From: Tannerella sp.
GTDB lineage: Bacteria > Bacteroidota > Bacteroidia > Bacteroidales > Tannerellaceae
Reading direction: 5' to 3'
DNA length: 64,000 nucleotides
Assembly (NCBI RefSeq): GCF_052170195.1
Contig: NZ_JBQNAZ010000007.1
Span: 21,948 to 85,947, forward strand
Shown here: in pieces, positions 23,594 to 53,583 of the stretch
Position numbering within the stretch: position 1 is the stretch's first letter
Layout: each line of letters begins with the position of its first letter
Notes under the pieces: model-generated
Told to the model about the DNA's origin: nothing
The model's input: the letters and a program-made list of their open reading frames with translations, nothing else
The model's database searches: none
Made by a program: the position numbers and the translations under genes

Positions 23594-23990
23594 GTAAGAG
23601 CAGTGTTTTTAGAAACTTTCGTTTTCTGTCATTTTTAACATAATGGGATGCAGCGTTCGACCGCTTGGTTTCATCATATACTCGTTATGCGTATAATTTA
23701 TTTGGATATGTTAATAACTGGTTGAACTTATCCGAATCTCTTCGTTTAATACGATGGGTGATTTTTTTTGTATATGGCTGATAAAAAGATTGACAAGGTC
23801 GTTTGGGTTGTTTAATCTCCGCATAAAAATCGGAGAATATGGAAGTGGAAATGTTAGTAACAAGGTGAAAAATAGTAGTCGGTATGCAAGATAAAAAGAA
23901 AGACACAGACGTTAAAGCGGAATGATTATTGCTGATGGCAAACGATTATCTAAAGCAATAACCACGTTTCTAATCAAAAAAAACTATTTG

Positions 23991-23998
23991 TATCTTTG
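23991..23998 (+). promoter_or_regulatory. -7 box (TATCTTTG) upstream of a 23-codon ORF and the lipoprotein gene
   Basis: TAtcTTTG lies 28 nt upstream of ATG 24026. Confidence 0.4.
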
Positions 23999-24149
23999 TC
24001 GTATCATATTTAAAAACAAAAAGCTATGAAAAAAACAACTGACACAGTGTTCTACAAACTGATGCACCTCGCAAACCGCACCGGAGGCGCAGCGTAAAAG
24101 AAATATCCGGAACGCGGAAAGCAAGTATAAACTTTAAAAATAAAAAAAC

Positions 24150-24485
24150 ATGAAAGCAAAAAACATTTTATGGATAGCTTCCCTGCTTCTGTTGATGGCA
24201 GGAACGGGGTGTGAAGTAAATAAATTAGAGAGCTCCGAAGAGCTTGGTGCTCGGACAGCAGAGGGCATAATGGTTTATGAGAATCCTGCGACAGACGGCT
24301 GTGGTTGGCTTGTACAGATCAATAATAAACCTTATTTCCCGGTAAACTTGGCTGATGAATACAAAATCGATAAGTTAAAAGTGTCTGTCGATTATCAGTT
24401 ATTAGATTCGAAATTCACTTGTTGGCCGGGTAGATTAATACCTGAAATTAAAATCGTCTCCATCAAAAAGATTCAACAGCCATAG
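24150..24485 (+). CDS. hypothetical small lipoprotein
   Basis: 111 aa. Lipobox LLLLMAGTGCE. Visibly lower GC than the flanking core genes. I recognise no family. Confidence 0.55.
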   Translation: MKAKNILWIASLLLLMAGTGCEVNKLESSEELGARTAEGIMVYENPATDGCGWLVQINNKPYFPVNLADEYKIDKLKVSVDYQLLDSKFTCWPGRLIPEIKIVSIKKIQQP

Positions 24486-24513
24486 AAAGAATATTTTATG
24501 TATAGTATATACA

Positions 24514-25131
24514 TTCCCGAACATGCCCAAAAGTATTCCCAAGGTCATCGGTGAGTATTTCCGAGCTTGTCAGCGAGTATTTCGGAAATACTTAACGGGT
24601 ATTTCGGAGCTTGTCGGCAGGTAGTTCCATTGCCACCCGACGGATGCCTCCGAGCTACCCGTCGGACGGTTCTTTATTACCCGTCGGGTAGCTCCGAACA
24701 TATCGACGAGTGATTCCGAAATACTCACCGATGACATCGGAACTACTTCGGGTACGTACCCGAACCACCCGACACCTGCTTCGGAACATATTCATGGGTG
24801 GCTCCGAACCGTATTAAATACCCCTCCGAACTATATTTAAGGTATTTCGGAATTATATTCCGGGTATTTCCGAACCTGATTTGGGTACGTTCCGAACCTA
24901 ATTCCGATACGTCTCAAACCACCCGTCGACAAGTTCCAAACCACCCATCGACAGGTTCCAAACTACCCGTCGATACGTTCCGAACGTATCGAAATACCCC
25001 TCCGAACCACCCGAAATCAGGTTCCGAACCGGTCATAATTTATTTCCGAACAGTATTAAATACCCTTCCGGACGTATCGAAATACCCTTCGGAACGTACC
25101 TGAATACCGTTCCGAACCACCCCCAAAGATT
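24514..25131. repeat. 22-bp-periodic array A (28 units) with TTC-N-GAA(C) core
   Basis: Core occurrences start at 24514, 24536, 24559, 24581, 24603, 24625, 24648, 24670, 24692, 24714, 24736, 24758, 24780, 24802, 24824, 24846, 24868, 24890, 24913, 24934, 24956, 24978, 25000, 25022, 25044, 25066, 25088 and 25110. Spacing is 22 bp, with a few compensating 21/23 steps. Confidence 0.9.
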
Positions 25132-41337: not shown

Positions 41338-41397
41338 GTCCGTTTATTGACTGAATATTGCCGAGGCATACGATATACATCATAAATTTTATATCCG

Positions 41398-41778
41398 ATG
41401 AAAACTTTTGCTTTTAAGTCGTTTGTTACAATGTGGGTTTGCTTGCTTCCGTTTATTTCCGGATGCAAAAAAGACAATGAATCTTCCCTCGATAAGTTAA
41501 ATGTTTCAGTATGTGACGCTAAAAAACCGCAGTGGTTAGAAAAGGAAATCGCTTCCATTATACTCCGATCTTCAATATACAGGCCGACTCGTATTCTCGT
41601 CTATAGAGGCCCGGAAAAGGAAATCATAGCTATCGAAGATTCGACGAATTCGAGTATGGAACAGCAGCTTCGTTTTTTTGACTGTGCCGGAAACAAGGTA
41701 GCATTTAAAAGTGCCGAATATAATTCGTGCGTAGAAAAATGGAAGCGTCGCGAGTTTTCGTTATTATGGACGAATTAG
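41398..41778 (+). CDS. hypothetical lipoprotein
   Basis: 126 aa. Lipobox LLPFISGCK. Lower-GC gene. I recognise no family. Confidence 0.5.
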   Translation: MKTFAFKSFVTMWVCLLPFISGCKKDNESSLDKLNVSVCDAKKPQWLEKEIASIILRSSIYRPTRILVYRGPEKEIIAIEDSTNSSMEQQLRFFDCAGNKVAFKSAEYNSCVEKWKRREFSLLWTN

Positions 41779-41802
41779 GTTTGGGTATTGTAGCAAATAT
41801 CA

Positions 41803-42209
41803 TAAACCACCTATTAAGGATACGTTCCGAACGTATTTTGGGTACGTTTGGAACGTCATTTAGGGTATTTCCGAATTATATTTCGGGTAGTTCGGAACCT
41901 GATTTGGGTACGTTCCGAACCTAATTCAGATACGTTCTGAGCTACCCTGTGATACGTTCGGAACGTATTTCAGGTACGTTCCGAACCACCCGTCGATACG
42001 TTCCGGACGTACCTAAATATCCCTCCGAACCACCCGGAATCAGGTTCCGAACAGGTCATAATCTATTTCCAAACAGTATTAAATACCCCTCGGAACGTAC
42101 CGAAATACCGTTCTGAACGTACCTGAATATCTTTTTGGACGCACCCGAATACCGTTTGGAACGTATCGAAAGATCCTTCCGAACCCGTTAGAACCTGTTA
42201 CCGAACGGA
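41803..42209. repeat. 22-bp-periodic array B (19 units), homologous and collinear with array A
   Basis: Cores start at 41803 (degenerate), 41825, 41847, 41869, 41891, 41913, 41935, 41957, 41979, 42001, 42023, 42045, 42067, 42089, 42111, 42133, 42155, 42177 and 42199, exactly 22 bp apart. Confidence 0.9.
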
Positions 42210-43367
42210 CTATTTCTTTGCTTTATACTTCATGACAACGAGCACGGGATTCGCATCTTCGTCCAATTGTGCGGCAATGTCCTTGAGTGGGCCTTTCAGC
42301 TCATCTTTTTCATACGCTTCAACAAGCTGATCGGCTGTCAGTATATTGAATGCCGCGATTGTGCCGTTTACAGGGTTTGAATTCATATTCACTTCATGCT
42401 TGTCGTAATCGGCATTGAATACGGTCGCGCGGTATAGGGCTTTTTCTTCCGTATCATACATCAAATCGGTTCTTGGAAATCCATTTCCGGTCGTGAAATC
42501 AAATTCTTTCTTAATCGTTTGCAGAAAATAATAACGGTCGGTCATCGTGCCCATCGTAAGGAGTATCTGAGGATCTTCGGAGGCGGTTTTTACTAAAAAC
42601 GGACGGATGGTGTTTCCTTCCGACAAATAAACCGTATCGGTCGATGTTTCGATAAGCAGAAACTTGTCGTGCCAAGGCACTATCGATTGGATGGTATTTA
42701 TAGCAATGCCTTCTTTCTGTATAAGAGGCGCTTTGACAATTTCGAAAGGAATCGGAATCTTCCGTGTCACGCTCCCGTCCTGCTTCGAAATAATGGCGTG
42801 AGAGGACCGGCCTTCCGAAGGCATTCCTTCCTTATAGTATATGGACATGTCATAGCTAATCAGATGTTCCCTGTCATAATTGAAGAGAACCGAATACGAA
42901 GCGCTGTCCGCGTGGTTGAAACTCCGTTTGAAACGACCTTCCAAGTCATACACGAATATTTTCCTCATGGGCATGCAATTGACAAACATTTCGTCATTGG
43001 CTTCGTCCAGTACGATTCGGTAGATGGATGTATATTCTTCGGCTCCTTGTCCTTTTCTGTTTATTTTTCTGATGCCTTTTCCCGTTTGTCGGTCAAAGAG
43101 AAAAATATCGCCGTCGGGTGTTCGGTTTTTGGCTAAAATGTACCGGTCACCGATGTCCAGCACATAGCCTTGGGTGATGAATTCATCGCTCGTTTCGAGC
43201 GGAATATATTCCACTTCCAGAATATCCTGAAGCATCAGTTTTTTCTCCGGATAATCGGCATGCACATCGACTGTGATGATCCCGGTTTCTTTTTCTTGAT
43301 GGCTGTTTCCACATCCGGCACATAAAGCCATTAGAAAGACGGATGCAATGATTTTTTTTCCTTTCAT
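42210..43367 (-). CDS. 6-bladed beta-propeller-type lipoprotein (BF3164-like family), function unknown
   Basis: MKGKKIIASVFLMALCAGCGN has a lipobox. The start ...VDVHADYPEKKLMLQDILEVEYIPLETSDEF resembles the Bacteroides 6-bladed beta-propeller lipoprotein family as I recall it. ATG 43367 was chosen. Confidence 0.6.
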   Translation of the reverse strand: MKGKKIIASVFLMALCAGCGNSHQEKETGIITVDVHADYPEKKLMLQDILEVEYIPLETSDEFITQGYVLDIGDRYILAKNRTPDGDIFLFDRQTGKGIRKINRKGQGAEEYTSIYRIVLDEANDEMFVNCMPMRKIFVYDLEGRFKRSFNHADSASYSVLFNYDREHLISYDMSIYYKEGMPSEGRSSHAIISKQDGSVTRKIPIPFEIVKAPLIQKEGIAINTIQSIVPWHDKFLLIETSTDTVYLSEGNTIRPFLVKTASEDPQILLTMGTMTDRYYFLQTIKKEFDFTTGNGFPRTDLMYDTEEKALYRATVFNADYDKHEVNMNSNPVNGTIAAFNILTADQLVEAYEKDELKGPLKDIAAQLDEDANPVLVVMKYKAKK

Positions 43368-46047: not shown

Positions 46048-46338
46048 ATGAAAAATATAGAATTGATCAGTGAATTATCGAACCGACTTCGTTGGGAGCA
46101 GGAAGAGACAGAACGAATGCTGGATGCTTTCTGTGAGGTCTTAGGTGATAAACTTGCAAGTAACGATATCGTCAGTTTGCATGGATTGGGACAGTTCGAA
46201 GCGAAGAAAAAAGACGAACGCTTTTTAGCCAATCCGAGCAACAGCAAACGTTATCTTATCCCTCCTAAACTCGTACCTGTTTTTAAACCGGTTGCAACAT
46301 TAAAGTCGTATTTAAAAACATTAGACAGCCATGGATGA
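46048..46338 (+). CDS. HU/IHF-like DNA-binding protein (divergent paralogue)
   Basis: MKNIELISELSNRL...LHGLGQFEAKKKDERFLANPSNSKRYLIPPKLVPVFKP has the HU-fold pattern. Confidence 0.75.
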   Translation: MKNIELISELSNRLRWEQEETERMLDAFCEVLGDKLASNDIVSLHGLGQFEAKKKDERFLANPSNSKRYLIPPKLVPVFKPVATLKSYLKTLDSHG

Positions 46339-47716
46339 AAAATTATCGATCTACGATATCTCCGAAATCCTGACGGCAAAGACCGGCAGAGAGAAGGCAG
46401 ACATTGAGACGTTTGTTGAAACGTTGATTGCGGTAATCAACGAGGCAATTACCCGCAACGGGTTTGTAAGAATAAAAGGAATCGGCAGTTTTAAAGTGAT
46501 TCTGGTTAAAGAACGTGAGAGCGTACATGTCAATACCGGCGAACGGATTGTCATTCCGGCGCATCACAAGCTGTCTTTCCTCCCCGATAAAATACTCAAA
46601 GAAAAGATTAATCGACCGTTTGCTTTTTTCGAAGCCATCGAAGCCAATGAAACGGAGAACAGTGAAATGGACTCAGCCCGTCTCTCCAAAGATGACGAAG
46701 AGGATGAAAACGATGAGCTCATGACCGCGGAAGAACCGGTTCAGGAGCTTGTCGGAGAAGTTACGGAAACAACAGAAGATGTAGCTCCGAAACCCGAAGA
46801 AAATCCGGCCCCGCTTTCAGTACTTCCTTCTGAAGATGAAACAAAAGAAGAACAGAAAACTATGGATAAAGAAATCGACGAAGAATCCGACCGGGAATGG
46901 TCGGAAGAGCGTGCAATCGGGAGCCATCCCGCCTCTGCCACGAACAGGGAAACATTACAAAGTACAATACCCATAAAACAAGAAGCCATGAATGAAGCAA
47001 AAGAACGTAAAGAGCAGCATGTGAACGAAACACCGAAATCTCATCCGGTCGCCAAGCCCGTTGTGAAGAAAAAGAAAAAAGAAACGTCGAATACCTCGCT
47101 GTATGTTATTCTGGCGTTGTTATTGTTGCTGTTAGGGGTGGGAATATTCTATTATTTCTACTATGATCGTTTATCGTACGAGGAGTTTAACAGCACAACA
47201 CAGCATACACAGACGACGGATGATTCGTTTCTTTTGCCCGGCGACTCCGCCGCGGTGCAAGAGTCAGAAAAAAGCGAAAACGTCGATACGTCCGGAGTGA
47301 CTGCTTCCGGAACGAACGAAAGTACCGCAACATCGCCGGTCGCTTCAACTTCGTCTACGCGGAAAGAGCAAACAGCTTCTACAGCATCGACATCATCCAA
47401 GAAAACAACTCCTCAACAGACGAAGCCAACAACAGGCACTTCCACCTCGTCGGATCATAACGTTATGGCACGTGTGAAAGTAGCATCGGGTGAGCGGTTA
47501 ACGTTGCTTGCGCAAAAATATTACGGGAATAAAGTCTTCTGGGTCTATATCTATGATTTCAACAAGGCCAAAATTTCCGACCCCGATCGCGTACCTGCGG
47601 GAATGGAAATTCTGATTCCGGCCAAAGAAGTATATGCGATTAATGCCCAAAGCAGCGCCTCCATTGCACAGGCAAAAGAATTACAGTCGAAGATCATGGC
47701 GAACAAGACAAAATAA
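46331..47716 (+). CDS. HU-like domain - acidic/ST-rich linker - TM helix - C-terminal LysM domain fusion protein
   Basis: N-terminus ...IKGIGSFKVILVKERESVHVNTGERIVIPAHHKLSFLP (HU fold), KKKKKETSNTS followed by the TM segment LYVILALLLLLLGVGIFYYFYY, and C-terminus VKVASGERLTLLAQKYYGNKVFWVYIYDFNK...VPAGMEILIP (LysM). 8-nt overlap with the upstream HU gene. Confidence 0.75.
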   Translation: MDEKLSIYDISEILTAKTGREKADIETFVETLIAVINEAITRNGFVRIKGIGSFKVILVKERESVHVNTGERIVIPAHHKLSFLPDKILKEKINRPFAFFEAIEANETENSEMDSARLSKDDEEDENDELMTAEEPVQELVGEVTETTEDVAPKPEENPAPLSVLPSEDETKEEQKTMDKEIDEESDREWSEERAIGSHPASATNRETLQSTIPIKQEAMNEAKERKEQHVNETPKSHPVAKPVVKKKKKETSNTSLYVILALLLLLLGVGIFYYFYYDRLSYEEFNSTTQHTQTTDDSFLLPGDSAAVQESEKSENVDTSGVTASGTNESTATSPVASTSSTRKEQTASTASTSSKKTTPQQTKPTTGTSTSSDHNVMARVKVASGERLTLLAQKYYGNKVFWVYIYDFNKAKISDPDRVPAGMEILIPAKEVYAINAQSSASIAQAKELQSKIMANKTK

Positions 47717-52836: not shown

Positions 52837-53583
52837 ATGAAAGCAATATATCTGATATTCATAAGTATGACAACCGCATTCTGTTGTACGAACGGCATGT
52901 TTGCACAGAAGGCGGAACGATCGCATATCCGAAAAGGGAACAAACTATACAAAGAAGAGAAATATACCGAATCGGAGATTGCTTACCGACAGAGCATCGA
53001 AGTGAATCCGCGCTCTGTCGAAGGCTCATACAATCTGGGTAATGCCTTGTACAAACAGGAGAAATATCCGGAAGCAGCCGAACAATACCAACAAATCGCC
53101 GGTCAGCGAGAGCGTCTGCTGACTGAAAATCCGGCCAATGCCCAACGATTAGCGGAAGTTTTTCACAACCTCGGGAATATTCAGATGAAGAACAAGGATT
53201 ATGCCAAAAGTATCGAGGCTTATAAACAGTCATTGAGGATGAATCCGAAAGACGAAGAGACACGGTATAACTTAGCTTTGGCTCAAAAGCTACTGAATGA
53301 TCAGCAGCAACAAAATCAAGACCAGCAGAATCAGAATCAGGATCAGCAACAGCAAGAACAGAAGGAGCAAAAACAAGAGCAGAATCAGGATCAGCAACAG
53401 CAGCAGAATGAGCAGAAAGAAAATAAGACACAAGAACAGAAGCAGGAGAATGAACAAATGAGCAGAGACAATGCACAACAGATTCTCGATGCTTTCCTGC
53501 AGGACGAAAAAGACACACAGGAGAAAGTTAAAAAGGCTCAGGCCAAACATCAAGAACGTCGTAAAACAGATAAACAATGGTAA
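52837..53583 (+). CDS. batC: TPR protein BatC with Gln-rich C-terminal region
   Basis: TPR repeats (YNLGNALYKQEKYPEAAEQY...) followed by a QQQQNQDQQNQNQDQQQQEQKEQ... low-complexity stretch. Confidence 0.75.
   Translation: MKAIYLIFISMTTAFCCTNGMFAQKAERSHIRKGNKLYKEEKYTESEIAYRQSIEVNPRSVEGSYNLGNALYKQEKYPEAAEQYQQIAGQRERLLTENPANAQRLAEVFHNLGNIQMKNKDYAKSIEAYKQSLRMNPKDEETRYNLALAQKLLNDQQQQNQDQQNQNQDQQQQEQKEQKQEQNQDQQQQQNEQKENKTQEQKQENEQMSRDNAQQILDAFLQDEKDTQEKVKKAQAKHQERRKTDKQW

Follow-up and report, generated by a model that had tools for sequence, protein, structure and literature searches.

Repetitive extragenic palindromic (REP) elements are hairpins of about 20–40 nt with a conserved GTAG, found singly, as inverted pairs or in clusters of alternating orientation with defined linkers. 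The BrickBuilt element of Porphyromonas gingivalis, an oral member of the Bacteroidales, is a minisatellite that sits inside a transposable element of the miniature inverted-repeat kind (MITE) and has a 23-nt unit, AGAYCATARTATCCTCTCRTRTG (Klein et al. 2015, PMC4596501). BrickBuilt is the closest described system to the repeats considered below. These lie in a stretch of 64,000 nucleotides of Tannerella DNA (contig NZ_JBQNAZ010000007.1, positions 21,948 to 85,947; hereafter the window), where a first-pass annotation had reported two arrays of 22-bp units, array A and array B, in the same orientation and about 16.7 kb apart. The two arrays do align on the same strand at that distance. We think it somewhat better than an even chance that array B, the subject of this analysis, is a copy of a dispersed, non-coding, Tannerella-specific 22-bp minisatellite family, and that it represents neutral or selfish repeat DNA in a convergent gap.

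Array B proved to be real: it has 18 non-coding units in strict phase, each made of the core TTCSGAAC and a 14-nt linker (Table 1). The core starts fall at 41825, 41847 and so on to 42199, 18 positions with a spacing of exactly 22 bp and no slip. Seven units match the core at all eight positions, nine at seven, one at six and one at five. Self-identity was 0.56 at a lag of 22, compared with 0.18–0.32 at lags of 20, 21, 23 and 24, and Tandem Repeats Finder returned periods of 22 and 44 for the region. At a threshold of 6/8, the in-phase run of core-like sites was 17, while the maximum in 300 dinucleotide shuffles of the array B region was 3. The exact spacing previously reported for 41825–42199 was thus borne out by the positions, the lag identities and the shuffles. 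In the window as a whole the exact core octamer was observed 15 times against 3.7 expected, and 13 of the 15 occurrences are inside arrays A and B.

The limits of the array needed revision. The first-pass annotation had counted 19 units, of which 18 are clear cores; the nineteenth, a supposed degenerate core at 41803 (TAAACCAC), agrees with it at only 3/8 positions, which is the chance level, and belongs to a non-repeat leader. The first real core lies 47 bp past the lipoprotein stop at 41778 rather than about 25 bp past it, and the last core ends at 42206, 3 nt short of the stop codon of the next gene and not on the base before it. The description of a convergent gap filled from the stop of the plus-strand lipoprotein gene (41778) to that of the minus-strand DUF5128 gene (42210) was confirmed. 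The same long allele is carried by two independent assemblies, L146 (100% identity) and L291 (99.3%), and array B is therefore not an assembly artefact (L-numbers label the related contigs and loci that were compared with the window).

The FtsY protein of the window is identical in AP013045.1, VFJI01 and FMMN01, which are strains KS16, ATCC 43037 and UB4, respectively (strain names from PMC7014623), and the window is therefore Tannerella forsythia. Locus B was compared among contigs encoding identical flanking proteins. The long allele, a 431-bp gap with 18 units, was found in three independent assemblies, namely those of the window, L146 and L291, and in two contigs broken inside it (L151, L152). 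The short allele, an 88-bp gap with the last four units only, was found in 15 contigs, including ATCC 43037, KS16 and UB4. The four-unit mini-array was present in every examined T. forsythia contig with an intact gap and was lost in L286, where an IS1595-family transposase gene (L286:1088-2138, corresponding to window 41338-42360) has taken the place of the 126-aa lipoprotein gene, of the mini-array and of the DUF5128 gene's 3' end. Long array B is a minority allele of a dispensable locus. Absence from close relatives had been named beforehand as one of the findings that would remove the argument for a constraint on phase, and the 88-bp four-unit gap between the same flanking genes in 15 contigs is such an absence.

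The long and short alleles differ by 343 bp (15 × 22 + 13), and the left junction is untidy. Because this junction lies outside array B, the difference is no fair test of phase. Sister copies were more informative. Array A in L162 has exactly one 22-bp unit fewer, within a run of three near-identical units, and the homologous copies in L063 and L089 differ from array A by +22 and −88 bp, plus a single 1-bp difference that is the array A phase slip. At the MT locus, an array beside a methyltransferase gene (L020/L022/L073/L250), the length steps among four alleles are 44 and 88 bp, one allele being off by −2. Length change in the family is overwhelmingly unit-wise. The expectation that indels come in multiples of 22 bp thus held for the sister copies in all but the 1-bp and −2 cases, but not for the 343 bp at locus B, with its junction outside the array. 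Likewise, the statement that the phase never slips was correct for array B but not for its sister, where cores 24625 and 24648 are 23 bp apart; the extra base at this slip is missing from the homologous L089 copy. Short-read contigs break within arrays in L001, L151, L152, L156 and L159.

Most of array B has a unit-for-unit counterpart in array A (homologous block, Table 1). The paralogous units correspond to the 3' part of array A, with unit order kept. The strict phase had been contrasted with what simple decay of a duplicated segment would leave; array B is largely such a segment, its homologous block being a gap-free, 83% identical paralogue of part of array A. Strict phase had also been attributed either to selection on spacing or to a unit-wise mechanism. 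The second of these is supported by the whole-unit differences in L162 (−22), L063 (+22), L089 (−88) and the MT locus (44/88), whereas the first is not, in that the phase is largely inherited, the long array is absent from most close relatives and the core and linker rates do not differ detectably.

Family members were sought with a pattern search that covered a single genome of each species. At non-orthologous loci it turned up arrays with unit-for-unit homology in T. forsythia COT-023 (L063), a Tannerella metagenome-assembled genome (L089) and a contig from a metagenome (L225). Other Tannerella arrays (L143, L033, L073, L210, L224, L250, L251, L255) combine the common core and period with different linkers. 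Homogeneous runs of one linker subtype were seen for ATTAAATACCC in L004, for CACCCATCGATACG in L143 and for GTATCnnnACCACG in L210, L224, L250, L251 and L255, and the old arrays resemble mosaics whose linker subtypes are those forming homogeneous runs elsewhere. Blastn with the arrays gave zero matches in the plasmid collection and in the phage collection, and a plasmid or phage origin was rejected on that basis. By these sequence comparisons the array B family is a dispersed, genus-restricted Tannerella repeat and not a single occurrence. Array A is itself part of a strain-specific segment (23935-25122) that is present in L162 and missing in strain L158, which has 39 unrelated bases instead. 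This segment also contains, near 23988, a Bacteroidetes-type promoter, TTTG...TATCTTTG.

Short 22-bp TCSGAAC arrays in Prevotella, KA00251 and other Bacteroidales were not counted as members of the Tannerella family. Many of them lie upstream of promoters, their flanking genes are mutually unrelated, and the search pattern itself selects such repeats. Bacteroidales bacterium KA00251 (L032, L044, L054, L091, L117, L119, L139) has a second dispersed 22-bp family, CTCGGAACTTTTCAGAAAATCT, in arrays of 4–8 copies at no fewer than 8 loci in one genome, some about 90–180 bp upstream of paralogous lipoprotein genes. Prevotella and relatives (L029, L030, L071, L079, L136) carry 3+3 22-bp units, inverted, around a conserved centre, TACTTTACCCCCCTAAAGTATC; these lie 60–120 bp upstream of the TTTG/TAnnTTTG promoters of gyrB or HU-like genes, and a long hairpin or cruciform could form there. 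Many near-perfect 22-bp arrays matching the core pattern, on both strands, were also found at many loci in genomes of the actinomycete Actinophytocola (L041, L056, L062, L068-L070, L103), and these are an unrelated, parallel dispersed repeat family.

The unit is a near-palindrome, in which a symmetric 7-nt core, TTCSGAA, is flanked by ACG and CGT and joined to the next by a 15-nt linker with CGTA at its start and TACG at its end. The palindrome comprises at least ACGTTCSGAACGT and often extends to RRRTACG-TTCSGAA-CGTAYYY plus about 1 free base, tiling the DNA every 22 bp. Within an array, core positions carry 1.0–1.7 bits and linker positions 0.1–0.5 bits. Between homologous copies, the mismatch rate was 15.1% for core positions against 16.6% for linker positions (Fisher p=0.54), and 39/183 core columns and 80/317 linker columns were variable (p=0.33). 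Strong purifying selection on single cores since the copies split is excluded by these sequence comparisons, and weak selection on the whole array is still compatible with them. The linkers show two polarities. In their middle 9 nt inverted matches are as frequent as direct ones, with 9–20 pairs per array against about 0.3 in shuffles; array B has ATTTnGGGT-type linkers in its left block and ACCnnAAAT-type linkers in its right block, and its unit polarity reads ++++??+?--??---??. In-register inversion of a block and independently varying half-sites of a symmetric unit would explain this pattern equally well.

Under the minisatellite explanation that we favour, a four-unit mini-array would have been resident at the site across T. 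forsythia, and in a minority lineage ectopic recombination, gene conversion or segmental duplication would have placed about 15 further units next to it, probably from a donor like the 3' part of array A. Array B would be strictly phased because it was inherited in register and because it changes by unit-wise slippage or recombination. The block itself was copied in register, and its divergence since then is only about 17%. Whole-unit turnover, by replication slippage or by unequal or in-register recombination between self-similar cores, is seen in the sister copies and presumably applies to array B as well. The core is common to all unit subtypes, which suggests that the amplification or dispersal process needs it intact; single old units would then decay nearly neutrally. 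The array would have no required function at locus B and would simply be tolerated in the convergent gap.

Several points weigh against this explanation. The 343-bp gain (or loss) at locus B has an untidy junction and only a tentative donor and mechanism. Uniform neutral decay of a once-homogeneous array cannot yield cores that are much better conserved than linkers; some constraint or drive must, at least formerly, have worked on the core. With the free centre base excluded, variable columns fall to 17.5% in the core against 25% (p=0.064), a weak trend, and with 18–28 redundant sites weak per-site selection would give such a trend. Finally, one small indel (1 bp) per approximately 170 substitutions between copies seems few for non-coding DNA, judged against an uncalibrated expectation.

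A rival explanation is that the array is a lattice for a protein. Each unit would be an operator-like palindrome, ACGTTCSGAACGT (to about 21 bp), bound by a dimeric DNA-binding protein, a proposal that we regard as unlikely while taking it seriously. Repeats at every two helical turns could nucleate a cooperative filament with a nucleoid-organising, centromere-like, silencing or roadblock role, which we likewise rate as a minority possibility, and selection might act on the array as a whole, so that single sites could drift, a suggestion of the same limited likelihood. The palindromic core and exact 22-bp period are common to all Tannerella subtypes, in genomes of about 47–58% GC. The consensus is two-fold symmetric, and inverted and direct matches between linker middles are equally frequent (9–20 pairs against about 0.3 expected). 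Homogeneous arrays vary mostly at two symmetry centres, the core centre and a 3-nt linker window, and the non-centre core positions show fewer changes, again as a weak trend (p=0.064). However, most strains lack long array B and L158 lacks array A, and the difference between core and linker substitution rates is not significant. Neither a par or rep gene nor a conserved DNA-binding partner gene was found among the flanking ORFs (open reading frames) scanned beside the arrays, and the plasmid and phage collections held no homologues. The contexts of the arrays are also mixed, with convergent gaps, co-directional gaps and promoter-proximal positions all represented.

The same symmetry can be read as that of a recombination site. 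The ACG/CGT arms around the 7-bp TTCSGAA would form a core-type site of a tyrosine recombinase or transposase, which we consider rather improbable. ACG-TTCSGAA-CGT in the unit consensus resembles inverted arms around a 6–8-bp overlap, a resemblance in sequence only. Breaking and rejoining at the cores would yield whole-unit deletions, duplications and in-register inversions, a mechanism that we hold equally improbable, and units do occur in both polarities, in register, but this pattern is as well explained by independently varying half-sites of a symmetric unit. The arrays might then be landing pads (attB) for integrative elements, or MITE-like relics of transposon-end binding-site arrays; this too we doubt. 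It is nevertheless favoured by an integrative element that encodes two tyrosine recombinases in tandem (Arm-DNA-bind_5 plus Phage_integrase) along with metal-efflux cargo and Toprim, and whose integrase-proximal end, CAACTATTCCCCTCAAAAGCAGAAG (CAACTATTCCCCTC...), directly follows a ...TTCSGAAC core in two arrays (L004; L020/L022/L073/L250). The arrays at these two junctions are of different subtype and have different outer flanks. In addition, four units in L108, next to another integrase, are enclosed in a perfect 19-bp inverted repeat.

These observations are offset by others. There are only two independent junctions, and with a same-phase chance of about 1/22 they are suggestive only. Close relatives of the element (83–96% integrase identity) abut unrelated DNA with no array, and the array is therefore not part of the integrative element. 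Inclusion of the array in an integrase element was rejected as well on the finding that, among 70 integrase relatives, an array lay upstream only in the three already known. A recombinase or transposase gene was not seen in the ORFs scanned around arrays A and B, terminal inverted repeats bracketing either array were not found, and the copy ends vary from locus to locus. The array may be a favoured target of the integrative element, two junctions being too few to conclude. The viral collection, scanned with the homogeneous-unit pattern for the other junction of the element, gave nothing new.

Some further features of these mobile elements were recorded. The L108 units (L108:826-940), four in number and 22 bp each, sit within the 19-bp inverted repeat GATTACGTCCGCTGATACG / CGTATCAGCGGACGTAATC, between a conjugation-type gene fragment and the integrase, and the cluster has a MITE-like or attP-like look. 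Relatives of the integrative element, among them L300, L301 and L305, lie head to head, 70–118 bp apart. The element's P-type ATPase gene carries about 13 copies of a 42-bp repeat at its 5' end (L250:6206-6754), possibly coding for repeated metal-binding motifs.

A broader proposal, which we think distinctly unlikely, is that some Tannerella recombinase or DNA-binding protein recognises the units as symmetric sites (ACGTTCSGAACGT, to about 21 bp) that together make up a lattice. If this were true, cutting and rejoining or filament formation would drive in-register gain, loss and inversion of units and would disperse multi-unit blocks, and the arrays would be safe landing pads for Bacteroidales integrative elements with tandem tyrosine recombinases. 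It would amount to a REP/RAYT-like (RAYT, REP-associated tyrosine transposase) or attB-array system undescribed in Bacteroidota, and to a natural example of an enzyme keeping the register of the repeat lattice that it remodels.

A structured RNA is very unlikely. The array would be transcribed as a long 3' untranslated region or a separate RNA and would act as a terminator or stabiliser, as a protein sponge with about 18 motifs (CsrB-like), or as a long hairpin. Whole array B does fold far better than its shuffles, with z-scores of −7.4 (+ strand) and −5.3 (− strand), but low folding energy is automatic for self-complementary repeated units, and the conserved four-unit allele is unstructured (z ~0). 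Arrays A and B each directly follow a + strand lipoprotein gene, and a TAnnTTTG-like box, TAGGTTTG, read from the sequence, overlaps the stop codon in long-allele strains. On the other hand, arm covariation around the core or linker was not found (permutation p = 0.13–0.86), terminator-like sites were not above expectation, and the arrays in the window and 18 related loci had 0 Rfam matches. In L089 two clear hairpin-plus-T-run terminators precede the array. The core is equal on both strands, and the 22-nt period suits the DNA helix better than known RNA-binding repeats. One hairpin per unit was rejected, as arm complementarity around the core or linker centre was no better than for permuted arms. 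The promoter and terminator scans were at chance level.

A CRISPR-like or protein-coding repeat has next to no probability and is effectively refuted by the letters themselves: the layout superficially resembles a conserved repeat plus variable spacer and spurious ORFs of 55–134 aa cross some arrays, but the conserved part is only 8 bp, the spacers are only 14 bp, mutually related and common to several loci, no cas-like domain was found in the 20 flanking ORFs scanned, the 22-bp period is not divisible by 3, and every frame closes within the array.

Both arrays A and B are set in ordinary chromosomal intergenic DNA among housekeeping genes. Around array B are genes for FtsY, a MiaB/RimO-like radical-SAM methylthiotransferase, YceG, pyruvate:ferredoxin oxidoreductase subunits and HU-like proteins, and around array A those for SusC/SusD, GldD, SSB, MutY, RNase G and a phosphopantetheinyl transferase. 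The 126-aa lipoprotein to the left of array B had zero Pfam matches. Two other features of the window were noted. An HU (Bac_DNA_binding) domain protein with a C-terminal extension of about 370 aa is encoded at 46331-47716 and is 461, 463 or 464 aa long, depending on the strain. At 53299-53409, within an ORF (52837-53583), 21/24-bp tandem repeats rich in CAG/CAA suggest a Gln-rich coding repeat.

Table 1. Positions of array B, its sister array and associated features (window coordinates unless a contig is named).
Feature	Location	Strand	Remarks
Array B proper	41825..42206	+	18 in-phase 22-bp units, each core TTCSGAAC plus 14-nt linker
Non-repeat leader	41779..41824	+	from lipoprotein stop codon to first real core; only in long-allele strains
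Strain-specific long-allele segment, ~343 bp	41788..42127	+	approximate coordinates, junctions not clean
Resident four-unit mini-array	42128..42209	+	cores 42133, 42155, 42177, 42199; 96-98% identity to the 88-bp gap of L147-L150, L153-L155, L283-L292
Homologous block	41858..42129	+	~12 units, unit-for-unit match to array A 24835-25106; 272 bp, 83% identity, zero gaps
Array A	24516..25117	+	longer sister, ~28 units; one +1 phase slip, cores 24625/24648 23 bp apart
Strain-specific segment, 1.19 kb	23935..25122	+	promoter-like TTTG/TATCTTTG, lipoprotein ORF 24150-24485, array A
Small predicted lipoprotein gene, 126 aa	41398..41778	+	left bound of array B; signal peptide with Cys
DUF5128 six-bladed beta-propeller lipoprotein gene, 385 aa as called	42210..43367	-	right bound of array B
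Integrative element	L250:1343-14986; also L004, L020, L022, L073		two tandem tyrosine recombinases, P-type ATPase, CusA/CusB/OEP efflux genes, Toprim gene

A description of the 22-bp family was not found in the T. forsythia comparative-genome paper (PMC7014623) or in full-text literature searches, and a literature search for the motif itself returned primer sequences only. The array family is an undescribed dispersed minisatellite of the periodontal pathogen T. forsythia and its relatives. The arrays explain contig breaks in short-read assemblies, and they mark strain-variable spots of the genome, where 22-bp length steps offer ready variable-number typing loci. The value of array B lies more in marking strains than in pointing to new biology. 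It would carry greater weight if the palindromic core proved to be the site of a recombinase or DNA-binding protein, in which case the arrays might be a defined integration platform for Bacteroidales mobile elements.

Like BrickBuilt, the Tannerella repeats occur in an oral Bacteroidales host as dispersed intergenic direct repeats of about 22–23 nt, reaching about 18–19 or more units, and both families are species-restricted and break draft assemblies. Variation in unit number is seen in Tannerella, whereas expansion or contraction is left open for BrickBuilt in the portion considered (PMC4596501). The unit sequences are unrelated (AGAYCATARTATCCTCTCRTRTG, 23 nt, against the TTCSGAAC core, 22 nt), and identity with BrickBuilt was rejected because the consensus is different. 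BrickBuilt, as described there, has a leader and a tail with terminal inverted repeats matching insertion sequences, which have no counterpart at arrays A and B, and the Tannerella unit differs from that of BrickBuilt in being nearly palindromic, its core conserved and its linkers diverged. An inverted-repeat search at arrays A and B found inverted repeats all inside the array and none bracketing it, and termini shared between copies were not found. A MITE structure was rejected for both arrays, as bracketing inverted repeats were not found.

Two other kinds of repeat share part of this architecture. Plasmid iterons and partition arrays (R6K 22-bp iterons, RK2 oriV, F sopC, R1 parC) are, like the Tannerella arrays, direct repeats at about two helical turns with a short conserved and sometimes palindromic core, which in the plasmid systems binds protein, and with units in both orientations. 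Unlike them, the Tannerella arrays are chromosomal, comprise 18–28 units and are strain-variable, and rep and par are not among the flanking ORFs. REP elements, bacterial interspersed mosaic elements (BIMEs) and REPINs (REP doublets forming hairpins), with their RAYTs, in Enterobacteria and Pseudomonas are generally known as palindromic intergenic units, often at gene 3' ends and in convergent gaps, and the Tannerella repeats resemble them in these respects. As in those families, conservation is at the level of the family while individual copies decay, copies are clustered, and they are, or in Tannerella may be, insertion targets of mobile elements. The Tannerella units differ from REP and BIME in that they stand head to tail in a strict 22-bp lattice and in that hairpin covariation was not found.

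The arrays also resemble bacterial variable-number tandem repeat (VNTR) and mycobacterial interspersed repetitive unit (MIRU) minisatellites, for example those of Mycobacterium tuberculosis, which are intergenic tandem repeats with whole-unit strain alleles that can be used for typing. MIRU units, in contrast, are 40–100 bp long and often overlap gene ends with translational coupling, whereas the Tannerella unit is 22 bp, palindromic and dispersed as blocks. As is characteristic of bacterial minisatellites, array B consists of constant-length, non-coding direct repeats, and whole-unit allele differences occur at the level of the family. By analogy, and regarded as selfish DNA, the array would in its functioning most resemble REP-type selfish palindromic repeats or a VNTR locus.

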